DNA of 38,652 nucleotides, taken from the IMG/VR virus record IMGVR_UViG_2671180727_000010; one strand, 5' to 3'. Numbering within the stretch: the stretch's first letter is position 1; the number at the start of each line of letters is the position of its first letter. Shown here piece by piece: positions 27,068 to 35,509 of this stretch. The notes under the pieces were generated by a model. That model had not been told where the DNA came from. It saw only the letters and a program-made list of their open reading frames with translations, and did not search any database. The translations under genes were made by a program, and so were the position numbers. The DNA comes from a virus (taxonomy: Duplodnaviria; Heunggongvirae; Uroviricota; Caudoviricetes).

Positions 27068-27219
27068 TCCATCACATAAAAATCGCGTTTATATATTATC
27101 AATTTTCTCACTTGTATAACCTAAATACGCATCCGTTTATCAATCCACCTTCCACAAACATCAGCTTTAGCTATGAAAAATAACAATCTCAAAGTGAAAA
27201 CCATTATCATAGGAAACGA

Positions 27220-27405
27220 TTAGATGAGATGGTCTAATTCATCATCTATCATTGCTTTAACACTTGAGTCATTAACCCCGTATTGATTTATGAACCGTTT
27301 CAGCTCCGGTGAAAACTGAAGGTAGATATCGTGAGCGTTTTTCACTGTAGGTTCAACGCCACGCATTTCAAGCGCCTTTAGTAGATATGAGTCTTCTTTA
27401 AGCAT
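27220..27405 (-). CDS. Small hypothetical protein (61 aa)
   Basis: ORF-track entry only; no motif. Confidence 0.4.
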   Translation of the reverse strand: MLKEDSYLLKALEMRGVEPTVKNAHDIYLQFSPELKRFINQYGVNDSSVKAMIDDELDHLI

Positions 27406-27902: not shown

Positions 27903-29936
27903 TTACTTAACCTGGTGGCCTGGTTTAGCACCAGCATCCGGGCTTAACAGGAAGATATCTTTCCCGCCGGGGCCAGCAGCCATCACCATGCCTTCGGAGA
28001 TACCGAAGCGCATTTTACGTGGTGCCAGGTTAGCCACCATAATGGTGTGACGACCAATCAGTGCCTGTGGATCTGGATAAGCGGAACGGATGCCTGAGAA
28101 GACATTACGCTTTTCACCACCGAGATCCAGCGTCAGACGAAGCAGTTTGTCAGAACCTTCTACAAACTCTGCGTTTTCAATCAGCGCCACGCGCAGGTCA
28201 ACTTTGGCGAAGTCGTCAAAGGTGATAGTTTCCTGAATCGGGTCGTCAGCCAGTGGGCCAGTTACCGGTGCGGCTGTGGCTTTCACTTCTTCTTTGGATG
28301 CTTCCACCAGTGCTTCAACCTGCTTCATATCGATGCGGTTATACAGTGCCTTGAACGGATTCACTTTATGGCCCAGCAGCGGTTGCTGGATACCATCCCA
28401 GGTCAGTTCTGTATTCAGGAATGCTTCTGCACGTTCAGTCAGTTTCGGCAGTACCGGCTTCAGGTACGTCATCAGCACGCGGAACAGGTTAATGCCCATA
28501 GAGCAAATCGCCTGCAGATCGGCATCGCGTCCTTCCTGCTTCGCCACCACCCACGGAGCCTGTTCATCGACATAGCGGTTAGCCAGGTCAGCCAATGCCA
28601 TGATTTCACGGATAGCTTTACCAAATTCGCGGCTTTCCCATGCTTCGCCAATCACTTCAGCGGCATCAGTAAAGGTTTTGTACAGTTGCGGGTCAGCCAG
28701 TTCGCTTGCCAGCACGCCGTCAAAACGCTTGTTGATAAAGCCTGCATTACGGGAGGCCAGGTTAACCACTTTGTTCACGATATCGGCATTCACGCGCTGA
28801 ACGAAATCCTCCAGGTTGAGATCGATATCATCAATGCGCGAAGAGAGTTTCGCAGTGTAGTAGTAACGCAGGCTGTCGGCGTCAAAATGATTCAGCCAGG
28901 TGCTGGCTTTAATAAAGGTGCCGCGAGACTTGGACATCTTCGCGCCGTTCACCGTCACATAGCCGTGAACAAACAGGTTGGTCGGCTTGCGGAAGTTGCT
29001 GCCTTCCAGCATGGCAGGCCAGAACAGGCTGTGGAAGTAAACAATATCTTTACCGATGAAGTGGTACAGCTCGGCGGTGGAGTCTTTCTTCCAGTATTCA
29101 TCGAAGCTGGTGGTATCGCCGCGCTTGTCGCACAGATTCTTGAAGGAACCCATGTAGCCAATCGGCGCGTCCAGCCAGACGTAGAAATATTTGCCCGGCG
29201 CGTTCGGAATTTCAAAACCGAAGTAAGGCGCATCTCGGGAGATATCCCACTGTTGCAGGCCGGATTCAAACCATTCCTGCATTTTGTTCGCCACCTGCTC
29301 CTGCAACGCGCCGCTGCGGGTCCATGCCTGCAACATTTCGCTGAAAGAAGGCAGATCAAAGAAGAAGTGTTCGGAATCACGCATTACCGGGGTAGCGCCA
29401 GAAACCACCGATTTCGGCTCGATCAATTCAGTCGGGCTATATGTTGCGCCGCAGACTTCACAGTTATCGCCGTATTGATCTGGCGCTTTACATTTCGGGC
29501 AGGTGCCTTTTACAAAACGATCCGGCAGGAACATGCCTTTTTCCGGGTCGTACAACTGAGAGATAGTGCGGTTTTTAATAAAACCGTTCTCTTTCAGGCG
29601 AGTATAGATAAGCTCAGACAACTGACGGTTCTCTTCGCTGTGCGTCGAGTGATAGTTGTCATAGCTGATGTTAAAGCCTGCGAAATCAGTCTGGTGTTCC
29701 TGACTCATTTCGCCAATCATCTTCTCCGGTGTGATACCAAGCTGCTGTGCTTTCAGCATGATCGGCGTACCGTGGGCATCGTCGGCACAGATGAAATTAA
29801 CCTCGTGGCCGCGCATTCGCTGGTAACGAACCCAGACATCAGCCTGGATGTGCTCCAGCATATGGCCGAGGTGGATTGAGCCGTTAGCGTACGGCAGCGC
29901 GCACGTCACCAGAATTTTCTTCGCGACTTGGGTCAT
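27903..29936 (-). CDS. metG: Methionine--tRNA ligase
   Basis: 677 aa from [28 protein letters not shown] (HIGH motif) with KMSKS; matches my recollection of Escherichia MetG almost throughout; the track ORF starts 43 codons upstream at an out-of-context ATG. Confidence 0.97.
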
Positions 29937-30093
29937 AGTAGGCATTACTTCTTTGTAGTGAAAAGGGGCTTGATAGTAACAAAATGGCCTTATGTCTGCC
30001 ATGTGATAACAGCATTTCTCATAAATGATTAAATGTCGTAGCTGGAGTACACTACAAGGCGACAATTGCGCAAATTAAAATAAAGGAGACGGG

Positions 30094-31194
30094 ATGAGCG
30101 AGTCCAAATCGCCGGATGCCCTGAGAGCAATGGTAGCCGGTACGCTGGCTAATTTTCAGCACCCAACCCTGAAACACAACCTGACTACGCTTAAAGCGTT
30201 ACACCATGTTGCGTTGATGGATGACACACTGCATGTCGAACTAATCATGCCTTTCGTGTGGAATAAGCCTTTTGAAGACCTGAAAGAGCAATGTAGTGGT
30301 GATCTGCTCCGTATCACTGGCGCAAAGGCTATTGACTGGAAGCTGTCGTACAACATTGCCACGCTTAAGCGCGTCAAAAACCAACCAGGCATTAATGGCG
30401 TTAAGAACATTATCGCCGTCAGCTCAGGCAAGGGCGGCGTGGGTAAATCCTCCACGGCGGTAAACCTGGCACTGGCGTTGGCTGCTGAAGGTGCGAAAGT
30501 TGGTATTTTGGATGCCGATATCTATGGTCCATCAATTCCAACCATGCTGGGCGCGGAAAACCAACGTCCAACCTCACCTGACGGTACTCACATGGCACCT
30601 ATCATGTCTCATGGCCTGGCAACCAACTCTATTGGTTATCTGGTCACCGACGACAATGCAATGGTGTGGCGTGGACCGATGGCCAGCAAGGCGCTGATGC
30701 AGATGTTGCAGGAAACTCTATGGCCTGATCTGGACTATCTCGTTCTCGATATGCCGCCGGGCACTGGTGATATTCAGTTGACGCTGGCGCAGAACATTCC
30801 TGTAACTGGTGCGGTTGTGGTAACTACGCCGCAAGACATCGCGCTGATCGATGCGAAGAAAGGCATTGTGATGTTCGAAAAAGTCGAAGTGCCGGTACTG
30901 GGTATCGTCGAAAACATGAGTGTGCATATTTGCAGTAACTGCGGTCATCACGAGCCAATTTTTGGCACCGGTGGCGCACAGAAACTGGCCGAGAAATACA
31001 ACACGCAGTTGTTAGGCCAAATGCCACTTCATATCTCTCTTCGTGAAGATCTGGATAACGGAACACCAACCGTTATTAGTCGTCCAGATAGCGAATTTAC
31101 GGCTATTTATCGTGACCTCGCAGATCGCGTTGCCGCCCAAATGTATTGGCAAGGTGAAGTAATACCTGGCGAAATCGCATTCCGCGCAGTGTGA
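30094..31194 (+). CDS. apbC: Fe-S cluster carrier ATPase ApbC/Mrp
   Basis: P-loop SGKGGVGKSSTAVNLA; CxxC motif (CSNCGHH); divergent from metG as in Escherichia; the true start may differ from the track start by a few codons. Confidence 0.93.
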   Translation: MSESKSPDALRAMVAGTLANFQHPTLKHNLTTLKALHHVALMDDTLHVELIMPFVWNKPFEDLKEQCSGDLLRITGAKAIDWKLSYNIATLKRVKNQPGINGVKNIIAVSSGKGGVGKSSTAVNLALALAAEGAKVGILDADIYGPSIPTMLGAENQRPTSPDGTHMAPIMSHGLATNSIGYLVTDDNAMVWRGPMASKALMQMLQETLWPDLDYLVLDMPPGTGDIQLTLAQNIPVTGAVVVTTPQDIALIDAKKGIVMFEKVEVPVLGIVENMSVHICSNCGHHEPIFGTGGAQKLAEKYNTQLLGQMPLHISLREDLDNGTPTVISRPDSEFTAIYRDLADRVAAQMYWQGEVIPGEIAFRAV

Positions 31195-31231: not shown

Positions 31232-31621
31232 CTACATCACGGGACAATCATCAAACTCGCCACTTCTTGCGTCGTTGATAATGTGAGTGATCACACCAAA
31301 CACGGCATTGCTGCCCGTGCATCCATCGTCATCCTTTGGCAATGCTTCCTTCTTACCGGTTCTTAAATCCTCCAGATGCTGACGTGGGTACTTCCGGTAT
31401 CTTTTTACGCGATATTCCCCATCCAGAGCGCATACAAGCAGAGAACCATCAACCGGGGTAAGTGAGGAATCGACCACCAGCAATGCACCCTGTAATATTC
31501 CCTCACGATGATGACTATCAGCTGCCCTCATGAAGTAGGTCGCTGAAGGATGTCTAATTATCTGCTGATCAAGAGAAATACGGCTCTCAGCATAATCCGC
31601 CGCAGGAGAAGGGAAGCCCAT
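31232..31621 (-). CDS. UmuD'-like S24 peptidase-fold protein, genetically pre-truncated (begins at the residue equivalent to the UmuD cleavage product)
   Basis: MGFPSPAADYAESRISLDQQIIRHPSATYF... aligns with UmuD from its Cys24-Gly25 cleavage site onward (my recollection of UmuD); the GDSM Ser motif is replaced by ADSHH; RBS AAGAGG; LexA box immediately upstream; no umuC-like gene adjacent. Confidence 0.75.
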   Translation of the reverse strand: MGFPSPAADYAESRISLDQQIIRHPSATYFMRAADSHHREGILQGALLVVDSSLTPVDGSLLVCALDGEYRVKRYRKYPRQHLEDLRTGKKEALPKDDDGCTGSNAVFGVITHIINDARSGEFDDCPVM

Positions 31622-31637
31622 AATACTCGCCTCTTAA

Positions 31638-31657
31638 TACTGTATATACATACAGTA
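31638..31657. promoter_or_regulatory. LexA (SOS) box TACTGTATATACATACAGTA
   Basis: 19 of 20 match to the E. coli consensus TACTGTATATATATACAGTA (CTGT-N8-ACAG); lies between the promoter and the RBS of the UmuD'-like gene. Confidence 0.8.
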
Positions 31658-31952
31658 TATGTTGAAGCTATATATTTTTGAACTCTATCTCTTAAAAAAG
31701 ATGTTAATAAGATGCTAACTATTGAAAGGCATAAATATATACAATTCCAACAAACGTTATTTTTAACAAATTTTTTCTCTCTGTTGACTTTTGCGAAAGC
31801 CTTGTCTGGCCTAAATTGCGCGGAAGCTACTTTTTCCTTCCTGAGTTATCCACAGAGTTATGCACTTGCATGCATAACCTATACACACTATCTTAATTCG
31901 CAAGACACTGATGTTGCGGTATTGAAGGTTCATTGGGTTAAAAATAGACATT

Positions 31953-31985
31953 AAAAAGCCCAGTTGACTAGGCTGGGCTTTTTAA
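31953..31985. terminator. Bidirectional-looking terminator hairpin
   Basis: AAAAAGCCCAG-ttgacta-CTGGGCTTTTT (A-tract before, T-tract after). Confidence 0.5.
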
Positions 31986-32017
31986 AAGGAAACAGAGTTT
32001 GCGGCTCTGTTCCTGAG

Positions 32018-32036
32018 CCATAAGTATCTGGCGACT
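32018..32036. repeat. 19-bp direct repeat CC(A/G)TAAGTATCTGGCGACT, copy 1
   Basis: 18 of 19 identical to the copy at 32191-32209; contains the GTAAGTAT half-site of the palindromic operator. Confidence 0.6.
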
Positions 32037-32190
32037 GAATTAAGATTAACCGAATGTACTGGATTCATCAAGAAACGTTGAGTGGTCATACCAGGTAATA
32101 ATGACCATTTACTAAACATCGTTGTTCTCAAAGAAGATTTAAGTCCAGGTTTTTGGTGACTCTAAAACCTTACCTTAACTCGAAATCGTG

Positions 32191-32209
32191 CCGTAAGTAT
32201 CTGGCGACT
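32191..32209. repeat. 19-bp direct repeat, copy 2
   Basis: See copy 1; the intervening ~154 bp contain the inverted repeat TGGTCAT...ATGACCA. Confidence 0.6.
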
Positions 32210-32283
32210 ACAGATATTGCAACTGCAAAGGCAAGCCCAAAGGTATTTGCAGCTAGGCGCGATAAAACTAAGTGAGGCCTGTT

Positions 32284-32367
32284 ATGGTTAACTTACTGTT
32301 CAAAATCGTGCCGCCGATGTTCGCGATTATCAAAGCGATCATTGAGTACGTAAACCAGCGTCCATAA
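32284..32367 (+). CDS. Possible 27-aa hydrophobic peptide (MVNLLFKIVPPMFAIIKAIIEYVNQRP)
   Basis: GTGAGG 6 nt upstream of the ATG; hairpin terminator directly downstream; below the ORF-track cut-off; hand-translated. Confidence 0.35.
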   Translation: MVNLLFKIVPPMFAIIKAIIEYVNQRP

Positions 32368-32380
32368 CGCTAGTTGCTAC

Positions 32381-32405
32381 AGGCCCCATCAAGAGCATGG
32401 GGCCT
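32381..32405 (+). terminator. Hairpin after the small ORF
   Basis: AGGCCCCAT-caagagc-ATGGGGCCT followed by CTTTATCG (weak U-tract). Confidence 0.45.
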
Positions 32406-32422
32406 CTTTATCGTACTATTGC

Positions 32423-34079: not shown

Positions 34080-34264
34080 TAGGCAGCTCTCTCAACAACA
34101 AGCAATTCGTCGTAGTCATAATCAGTTTCGGAACCATCCGTACCGAACAGAGTCACTTTGTCATTTTCCATCCAAAAAGATTTAACCGCACATTGTTGAC
34201 CTTTAGATGTTATGAGCACATCACCAGGGATTACGTCTTCAGCGCGAACCTCTAGTGTTCTCAT
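34079..34264 (-). CDS. Small hypothetical protein (61 aa)
   Basis: Coupled ORF. Confidence 0.4.
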   Translation of the reverse strand: MRTLEVRAEDVIPGDVLITSKGQQCAVKSFWMENDKVTLFGTDGSETDYDYDELLVVERAA

Positions 34265-34791
34265 CGTGCTGCCCCCTCTTTGGTGAAAATGCCTGCTGCA
34301 ATGCTGTTTATGATGCTGTCAGTGCATGGAGTAGAAAGCTGGGCATCTCCAGCAATTTTCATGACCTCAACATCCGCATATCGAATACCGAGGTGTATCA
34401 GACCGGCTATACCTGACTTAAGTCGAACATTTTCCATAAACAGATCTTTTTCCCGCTGTTTAGCGGCTTCCAACTCCATCGACAATTTTTCCAACTGCTC
34501 TTTATGCTTCTTGTATTCCTGATACGCGTGCCAAGACTGACCTTTGCGCACACTATCAGCGATATCAGCAACCTGCTCTGGTGTTAGCGTGGTCAGTGGC
34601 TGTGATGGAAAAATCATCACTTGCCCGGCATCCCAATCAAAACCCGCCTGAATTGACTGAACCTCAACTGATGGTGTTGAACCGATGCGACCAGGCGAAT
34701 GAACAACGATCGTTACATCCATATCGCGACGATGGCTGTGGTTGTTGGACAAAATACGATTCACCAACTCAGAAAATTTGGATAATTTCAT
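34261..34791 (-). CDS. Hypothetical phage early protein (176 aa)
   Basis: ATG at 34791 overlaps the upstream stop as ATGA ([14 protein letters not shown]...); the track ORF extends to 34920 through the upstream gene. Confidence 0.5.
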
Positions 34792-35111
34792 GCTGATCTC
34801 TCTTTCTCTCCCCGGATAATTCTGTTGCACACATCCACACACTCGTCGCAGATGAAAACGGCGTCCCCAGCAATTAACTTTTTGACGGCGTACTGGGATT
34901 TGTTGCAGAAGCTGCAACAAAGTGTTCGCCTGACTGATAAGGATGGAGCGCCAGATGTCAGCCGCTCCATATCGTTCTTGCGACGCAATATCACACGGCT
35001 GAACTCAACCAGTTTCTCCGGGGATATCTCCTCCTCCGTAGCGAGCGTCTCTAGTCGTTCGAGTATGTTGAAGGCTTTTTCTTGGGTAATAGCAGAGTGC
35101 GATGTGGTCAT
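34788..35111 (-). CDS. Phage protein with a C-terminal ClpX-type C4 zinc-binding domain
   Basis: [34 protein letters not shown] closely matches the ClpX N-terminal zinc-binding domain as I recall it ([34 protein letters not shown]). Confidence 0.65.
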
Positions 35112-35509
35112 TTTCTTTCACCTTCAATGTTCGTGGCGCTGGCAAGATTGTCCTTGCGAAGAAGAGCGGCTATGCGCTTACTTCCATCCGAGATAACGCC
35201 CTCGTAATACTCACGCTGCTCGTTGAGTTTTGATTTTGCCAACTCCAGTTGTTTTGTTAGTTCCGCAATACGGCAAACATCGTTGATACGCGTTTCCTCT
35301 AATGCGTTGATCTCATCCAGTAGTGCCAGCACGGTTTCTGGTCCGGCCAGAAATTTGAAGGCGTTGAGGGCATCAATATCAACACCGCTATCTTTAAGTT
35401 CCTGTTCGCATATCAGATCATCATCAACTGGCAACATTAACAGGCGTTCCATTGCCGGAATTGCACGCTCTGCCGCCTCACGCAGTGCCTGATAGTCAAT
35501 CTTGCTCAC
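35108..35509 (-). CDS. Hypothetical phage early protein (133 aa), ea22-type context
   Basis: Coupled ORF; helical, charged. Confidence 0.45.

Follow-up and report, generated by a model that had tools for sequence, protein, structure and literature searches.

A mobile gene of temperate enterobacterial phages and phage-plasmids encodes a ClpX-type zinc-binding domain in a motor-less architecture

ClpXP takes part in the life of temperate phages and plasmids through the turnover of lambda-O, the remodelling of the Mu transpososome and the decay of the P1 antitoxin Phd, and it also removes LexA and UmuD′ fragments and affects the levels of sigma-S. The zinc-binding domain (ZBD) of ClpX folds independently and dimerises in isolation (PMC9035409). 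Trigger factor binds to its hydrophobic pocket, with an overlap with the lambda-O site, this hydrophobic region is also bound by SspB and by RssB, and lambda-O is not degraded in absence of the ZBD (PMC7804408); moreover, the docking of RssB on the ZBD competes with that of SspB (PMC7226468). Here, we describe a gene in which this domain is found without the rest of ClpX. The domain call itself is already public, as it is contained in a RefSeq name, in PHROG 6797 and in the tables on P2 hotspots of PMC9122126; the novelty lies in the setting of the domain, an architecture that is mobile and lacks the motor. A search of PMC and bioRxiv returned no functional study on the family described below or on any free phage ZBD, and no description of viral mimicry of the recognition domain of an AAA+ protease.

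The DNA analysed (the window, 38,652 nucleotides) belongs to an SSU5/pHCM2-like phage-plasmid of ~108 kb, and it shows 99-100% identity to plasmids of E. coli, for example pAVS0223-B, and to "phage CMS-2020a". The phage-plasmid carries nrdAB, thyA, dfrA51, rnhA, metG, apbC, an S24 peptidase gene, ParB-like genes and siphovirus morphogenesis genes. An earlier note, made from the letters alone, had pointed to an open reading frame on this DNA, and we found it exactly there, at 34788..35111 on the minus strand, as a complete ORF of 107 aa that begins with ATG and ends with TGA. Its two-domain product bears the RefSeq name "ClpX C4-type zinc finger protein", and plasmid pAVS0223-B has a 100% identical gene, annotated as WP_024187529.1.

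The gene is surrounded by small accessory genes of the Ea22/Eae/Eaa-like kind, arrayed in one direction, and has ATGA start/stop overlaps with both neighbour ORFs. On one side, its ATG overlaps the TGA of an upstream Ead/Ea22-like ORF of 133 aa (35108..35509, minus strand; Pfam PF13935, E=5e-23), which RefSeq treats as a C-terminally truncated pseudogene. On the other side, its TGA overlaps the ATG at 34791 of a downstream hypothetical ORF of 176 aa (34261..34791, minus strand; annotated WP_021533171.1), for which no Pfam, NCBIfam or PADLOC family was found. A Shine-Dalgarno-like GAAGGTGA, read directly from the sequence, is located 7 nt 5′ of the ATG (35118..35125, minus strand). The ATGA overlap at either end of the gene indicates translational coupling inside a polycistronic operon, and the gene is probably expressed together with the surrounding early accessory and DNA-metabolism genes. 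The label of "phage early protein" given by the earlier note would follow from this Ea22/Eae-type neighbourhood. We also considered whether the gene could be a moron with its own promoter and terminator, and no convincing sites were found, the counts being at or below the shuffle expectation. Scans for tRNAs and Rfam families over the entire window gave no matches.

The earlier note had assigned the C-terminal part of the protein to ClpX, and Pfam, a PDB search and Foldseek all confirmed this. Pfam PF06689 (zf-C4_ClpX) matched residues 65-100 with E=1.2e-15 and 57.5 bits (gathering cut-off 27) over profile positions 2-38 of 39. A phmmer search of PDB sequences returned matches to ClpX only, the best being the E. 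coli ZBD (1OVX/2DS5; E~1e-14, residues 62-103). Together with Foldseek and the invariant columns, these searches delimit the domain to residues 64-102 (34806..34922, minus strand). The domain had also been called near-identical to that of ClpX, which was right about the homology and too strong about its degree: direct comparison with MG1655 ClpX gave 27 identical residues out of 38 (71%) in the core and 28 out of 44 with the flanks, not more than 90%. As many as 24 of the ~38 core columns are invariant between the window protein, E. coli ClpX and ten metagenome ClpX N-terminal sequences, eight of which have recorded AAA+ domain hits; therefore, the match goes beyond a generic CxxC...CxxC spacing.

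The putative zinc ligands C66, C69, C88 and C91 correspond to C14, C17, C36 and C39 of ClpX (literature numbering), with the spacing CxxC-(18)-CxxC, and they are invariant in family alignments of 20 and of 25 sequences. F68 corresponds to ClpX F16 and is invariant in the family, while I98 and I99 correspond to I46 and I47; of 19 family members, 18 have a hydrophobic residue at the position of I98, and I99 is nearly invariant. We built an AlphaFold2 model from a 25-member family alignment (mean pLDDT 73.8), in which the ZBD reached a pLDDT of 77-88. The predicted treble-clef fold superposed in Foldseek on 2DS5, 2DS6, 2DS7 and 2DS8 with an rmsd of 0.5-0.6 Å over 38 residues at 68-71% identity. 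Judged by its sequence, the segment formed by residues 64-102 is a bona fide ClpX-type C4 ZBD whose homology is secure, and we infer that it binds zinc and dimerises like the ClpX N-domain.

On the contrary, nothing of the ClpX motor accompanies the domain. Compared with the models of the ClpX AAA+ unfoldase (TIGR00382/PRK05342), the window protein scored 39-42 bits against cut-offs of 359-371 and aligned with model positions 4-48 only; with its 107 aa, it carries no AAA+ motor. Many family entries in NCBI/GenBank, including D6 gp034 and P88 gp19, are named "carboxylate--amine ligase". We found no ligase catalytic domain, since among all Pfam families PF06689 alone scored above its gathering threshold, and the name is a propagated annotation error.

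One departure from ClpX is systematic and concerns Pro31 (in AGP), which is otherwise near-invariant. Members of the phage-plasmid subgroup have Asp or Glu at this position, Asp being the residue of the window protein, while P88-type members retain AGPSVYIC; moreover, one subgroup of the family has KLIITGEGVCIC in the beta-hairpin of the ZBD. We take this hairpin to be the place where the XB peptide of SspB pairs in 2DS8. The replacement of Pro31 and the presence of KLIITGEGVCIC at such a position suggest that the ligand specificity may differ from that of ClpX. These family-specific hairpin substitutions (AGP to AGD or AGE, and the ITGEG subgroup) could also be read as signs of a use independent of ClpX, in which the treble clef would serve only as a scaffold on which an unrelated partner, protein or nucleic acid, is bound or dimers are formed, and the likeness to ClpX would reflect ancestry alone. 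Treble-clef fingers are generic interaction modules, and a relatively relaxed dN/dS of the ZBD as well as other free-ZBD architectures in metagenomes, both considered below, go in the same direction. However, the 24 invariant columns are held in common with ClpX from distant phyla and include the surface pocket; considering that pocket residues are invariant besides the zinc ligands, fold maintenance alone is a poor explanation, and we regard a ClpX-independent use as unlikely.

The earlier note had missed the other half of the protein, which is a conserved N-terminal helical domain specific to the family. This N-domain (residues 1-52; 34956..35111, minus strand) is predicted to form a helical hairpin, with helices at residues 10-25 and 31-52 and a pLDDT of 75-83, and it is followed by a linker predicted to be disordered (residues 53-63; 34923..34955, minus strand), in which residues 56-61 have a pLDDT below 50 and P88-type homologues have an indel. 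The whole-chain pTM of the model, 0.38, is consistent with a loosely coupled two-domain layout. The N-domain matched no Pfam, NCBIfam or PADLOC family, and when scanned alone it gave only a sub-threshold match to RIF2_ASCE; no fold match was found in the PDB, as the Foldseek matches run through the ZBD only. An XB-like self-docking motif (LRVVK / LKxh) was looked for in the N-domain and linker, where a weak, non-conserved LSVRR was the only candidate.

Results of an exhaustive phmmer search with residues 1-62 showed 8 proteins among 1.84 billion representatives, each of which has the N-domain+ZBD architecture, in some cases frameshifted. No protein in that set of 1.84e9 representatives joins the N-domain to other domains. 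So few matches, all of one architecture, indicate that the N-domain+ZBD protein is a narrow family, and its named members come from Escherichia and Salmonella. PHROG 6797 covers the full length of the window protein (E=6.2e-58, with residues 1-106 aligned to positions 1-106 of a 107-position profile) under the label "unknown function", and members of this PHROG and of the RefSeq family include D6 orf93, P88 gp19 and WP_024187529.1.

Detached ZBDs occur outside this family too. ZBD-only ORFs are found in Caulobacter phage Cr30 (79 aa), in phrog_12435 and in contigs of human-gut phages, and, as these phages are unrelated, a detached ZBD is a recurrent feature among phages. In Cr30, a lytic T4-like phage, the 79-aa ORF lies at 2522-2761 on the plus strand, and the deposited CDS is shorter (2636-2761). 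Among metagenome sequences, one motor-less form (~125-131 aa) begins with the ZBD and continues with a second C4 ribbon, and in another one the ZBD comes after an unrelated N-terminal region with a hydrophobic stretch.

As the pocket residues are kept in the window protein and adaptors and substrates dock at this pocket of ClpX (PMC7804408), the proposal of the earlier note that a free copy of the domain could titrate adaptors or substrates, or heterodimerise with ClpX, is structurally reasonable as far as the residues tell. Titration would proceed as follows. The window ZBD would fold, bind zinc and dimerise as the N-domain of ClpX does, presenting the same hydrophobic pocket, and the protein would act in trans on the ClpXP pathway by mimicking that N-domain. 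As a soluble decoy, it would capture the ligands of the ZBD, such as the XB-type tails of SspB and RssB, UmuD-type tethers or lambda-O-like degrons, so that ClpXP would slow down on ZBD-dependent substrates and ZBD-independent ones would be spared, while the helical N-domain would add specificity for a partner or extra avidity. We consider a decoy that sequesters ZBD-docking adaptors or degrons to be the most likely of the readings weighed here, although one with somewhat less than an even chance.

Several observations speak against the decoy. A pure decoy leaves the conserved N-domain unexplained, since this domain would be superfluous in it. The change of Pro31 and the KLIITGEGVCIC subgroup may mean that ligands other than those of ClpX are bound. 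Between close relatives, the dN/dS of the ZBD is ~0.6-1.4, in a short domain and with noisy values. Finally, no partner is conserved beyond recurrent, positionally variable Ead/Ea22-like neighbours: across the element types we found no other conserved partner gene, and the Ead/Ea22-like genes recur on either side.

In another reading, the phage ZBD would form heterodimers with the ZBD of a ClpX subunit in place of homodimers, which would either cap the ClpX N-domains or set the helical N-domain on the hexamer as a new module for the recognition of substrates or adaptors, and proteolysis or remodelling would thereby be redirected and not just inhibited. The N-domain, with its dN/dS of 0.2-0.5, is never found without the ZBD, as expected if the latter is an anchor; the flexible linker resembles the flexible tether of the ZBD in ClpX; and the residues of the ZBD helix V92, V94, I98 and I99 (V40, L42, I46 and I47 in ClpX) remain hydrophobic. 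The capacity of the ClpX ZBD to dimerise in isolation, mentioned above, is a further argument in favour. On the other hand, ZBD dimers of ClpX are reportedly constitutive and stable, so that subunit exchange may be inefficient, and such a retargeting of ClpX seems to us improbable.

We asked where the ZBD came from. The ZBD-coding DNA has 61-66% nucleotide identity to clpX of MG1655, and about half of the third positions match at identical residues. A blastn search over 5,426 complete E. coli genomes found the gene in 220 of them (~4%), at 233 places (106 on plasmids and 127 on chromosomes), and it did not match the chromosomal clpX in these genomes. Over 49 aa, the window ZBD is 59% identical to E. 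coli ClpX and 57-65% identical to metagenome ClpX N-termini, some of which their source assigns to Acidobacteriota. A recent capture from the host clpX is therefore ruled out by the nucleotide identity, the near-saturated third positions, the lack of a blastn match to clpX and the fact that the ZBD resembles the metagenome ClpX sequences as much as that of E. coli. The nucleotide identity and the blastn result point instead to an old copy, kept independently of the host clpX.

Both domains are under selection, with dN/dS values mostly below 1. Pairwise values for the ZBD are ~0.2-1.0, with 1.4 for the window against D6, estimates that are noisy in so short a domain. In this small sample, the dN/dS of the ZBD exceeds that of the N-domain, despite the likeness of the ZBD to a highly conserved host domain, and these raised values could reflect diversifying surface positions.

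This evidence also bears on the idea that the gene is a non-functional leftover, a decaying recombination fragment in the mosaic Ea22 region. The upstream Ea22-like gene indeed ends prematurely at the junction and bears a pseudogene flag, and Cyrano, though closely related, lacks the ZBD gene. However, no full-length member has a broken reading frame and the four cysteines are invariant across ~30 clusters, dN/dS is mostly below 1, the gene has its own Shine-Dalgarno sequence and translational coupling, and it occurs in ~220 of 5,426 E. coli genomes and in several types of element; we disfavour decay and give it hardly any credence.

Pairwise blastn of the window against Cyrano, PhiR41_1 and D6 revealed a mosaic segment around the gene, at 34461..35468. 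Phage Cyrano, otherwise 98% identical to the window, has ~320 bp of unrelated sequence in place of this segment and lacks the ZBD gene. Within the same segment, D6, a P1-like phage-plasmid whose homologue of the ZBD protein is orf93, shares only positions 34806-35170, at 92%. The replacement in Cyrano and the stretch shared with D6 show that the ZBD gene travels as a module of ~370 bp. The mosaic breakpoint towards Cyrano at ~35468 falls inside the Ead/Ea22-like ORF 35108-35509. Ea22-like genes recur beside the ZBD gene in other elements as well, and recombination between them may be what moves the ZBD module.

The carriers are of several kinds. In a lambdoid prophage adjoining ynfF, the order of the block is identical (Ea22-ZBD-176aa-61aa-DUF551). 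In P88/P2-like prophages, the ZBD gene always comes after gpA-ParM-StbB and ahead of the portal gene. SSU5-like elements, D6 and the P2-likes with their ParM/StbB cassette had raised the idea of an exclusive tie to elements with a plasmid state, which is weakened by the lambdoid prophage carrier at ynfF; a ParM (StbA)/StbB partition cassette is missing beside the ZBD gene of this lambdoid prophage. Retention as a discrete module in several types of temperate element, together with selection, a good Shine-Dalgarno sequence and coupling, was counted in favour of mimicry.

The position in P2-like phages opens another reading, in which the gene is cargo for competition between phages that blocks a competitor needing the ClpX N-domain (for remodelling of the Mu transpososome or lambda-O turnover) or shields its carrier against a host response that depends on ClpXP. 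PMC9122126 describes the gpA-gpQ locus as a hotspot that harbours anti-phage systems (old, tin, retrons and others), partition systems and toxins; according to this source, a ParM/StbB-type cassette is present in about a quarter of P2-like phages, and its supplementary tables (Table S5) list "StbA + Plasmid_stab_B + zf-C4_ClpX" arrangements. The P88/P2-like copies, between gpA and the portal gene, fall in this hotspot, and the window copy sits among Ea22/Eae-type non-essential genes, both of which would suit cargo. However, the same hotspot also holds non-defence cargo such as the partition systems and toxins; term searches of the main text of PMC9122126 brought up no test of the zf-C4_ClpX arrangement; and PADLOC-DB 2.0 has no family (0 hits) for the ZBD protein or nine neighbour ORFs. 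We therefore hold a role as competition cargo to be distinctly unlikely.

Other features of the surrounding DNA were recorded. An S24-family (UmuD/LexA-like) peptidase gene lies at 31232-31621 on the minus strand, 3 kb from the ZBD gene. UmuD tethers UmuD′ to ClpXP via the ClpX N-domain, so that a ZBD mimic could have a phage UmuD-like protein among its clients; elements of the D6/P1 type carry UmuD-like genes as well. Between the S24 peptidase gene and the ea-like array, ~800 bp (31622-32422) have no ORF of at least 70 aa and contain a strong hairpin at 32381-32405. The window also has genes for a full-length methionyl-tRNA synthetase (metG; 27903-30065, minus strand) and for an iron-sulfur carrier ATPase of the ApbC/Mrp type (30094-31194, plus strand). 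An antisense ORF of 503 aa is contained in metG (28368-29879, plus strand), unannotated in the records examined, and a ~5-kb region at ~22300-27400 has only short hypothetical ORFs.

Taken more broadly, temperate enterobacterial phages and phage-plasmids might use a detached ClpX docking domain as a mimic, by sequestering adaptors or degrons or by heterodimerising, and so reprogram the targets of ClpXP, a general proposal that we hold only tentatively and judge on the doubtful side. If mimicry is true, candidate targets would be replication initiators, sigma-S via RssB, UmuD′, antitoxins and proteins of competitors, and the strategy would be a general one, in view of the similar ZBD-only ORFs that unrelated phages carry. 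A free-standing and mobile ClpX docking domain would selectively switch off ZBD-dependent ClpXP pathways, adding a further example of the mimicry of host domains by phages and giving a function to a recurrent "hypothetical" gene, often mis-annotated, of ~4% of complete E. coli genomes. If ClpXP is unaffected, the gene would be just another small zinc-finger accessory gene of the mosaic ea region.

Compared with known systems, the window ZBD is closest to that of E. coli ClpX, with which it has in common the fold, the CxxC-18-CxxC spacing, 27 of 38 residues, the F16/I46-I47 pocket and a predicted superposition within 0.5-0.6 Å; unlike it, the window ZBD has no AAA+ motor, is placed at the C-terminus of a small protein and has Asp instead of Pro31. 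Within PHROG 6797, the window protein is an ordinary member, with no difference seen. The Cr30 ORF and phrog_12435 are phage ZBDs like that of the window, but without the helical N-domain, and phrog_5259 is another phage-borne ClpX ZBD sequence. In the jumbo phages Atu_ph07 and Phosso, on the contrary, the ZBD is not detached and lies within a ClpX annotated as full-length ATP-dependent Clp protease ATP-binding subunit.

Phages are known to encode modulators of host proteolysis, as T4 PinA, which acts against Lon. For the outcome proposed here, the anti-adaptors IraD, IraM and IraP are a parallel, being small proteins that stabilise substrates of an AAA+ protease by blocking their delivery. 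However, the Ira proteins bind the adaptor RssB with folds of their own, whereas the window protein would mimic the docking domain of the protease; no sequence relation to the ClpXP adaptors and anti-adaptors (SspB, RssB, IraD/M/P) and no fold relation to the Ira proteins was found, and we do not claim membership. The nearest analogue is the isolated recombinant dimer of the ClpX ZBD, reportedly used in vitro, which is likewise a motor-free ZBD and holds the primary site at which lambda-O and SspB dock, so that it offers a natural model for a competitor acting in trans. That dimer is a laboratory construct, while the gene of the window is natural and selected, and it adds a conserved N-domain to the ZBD.
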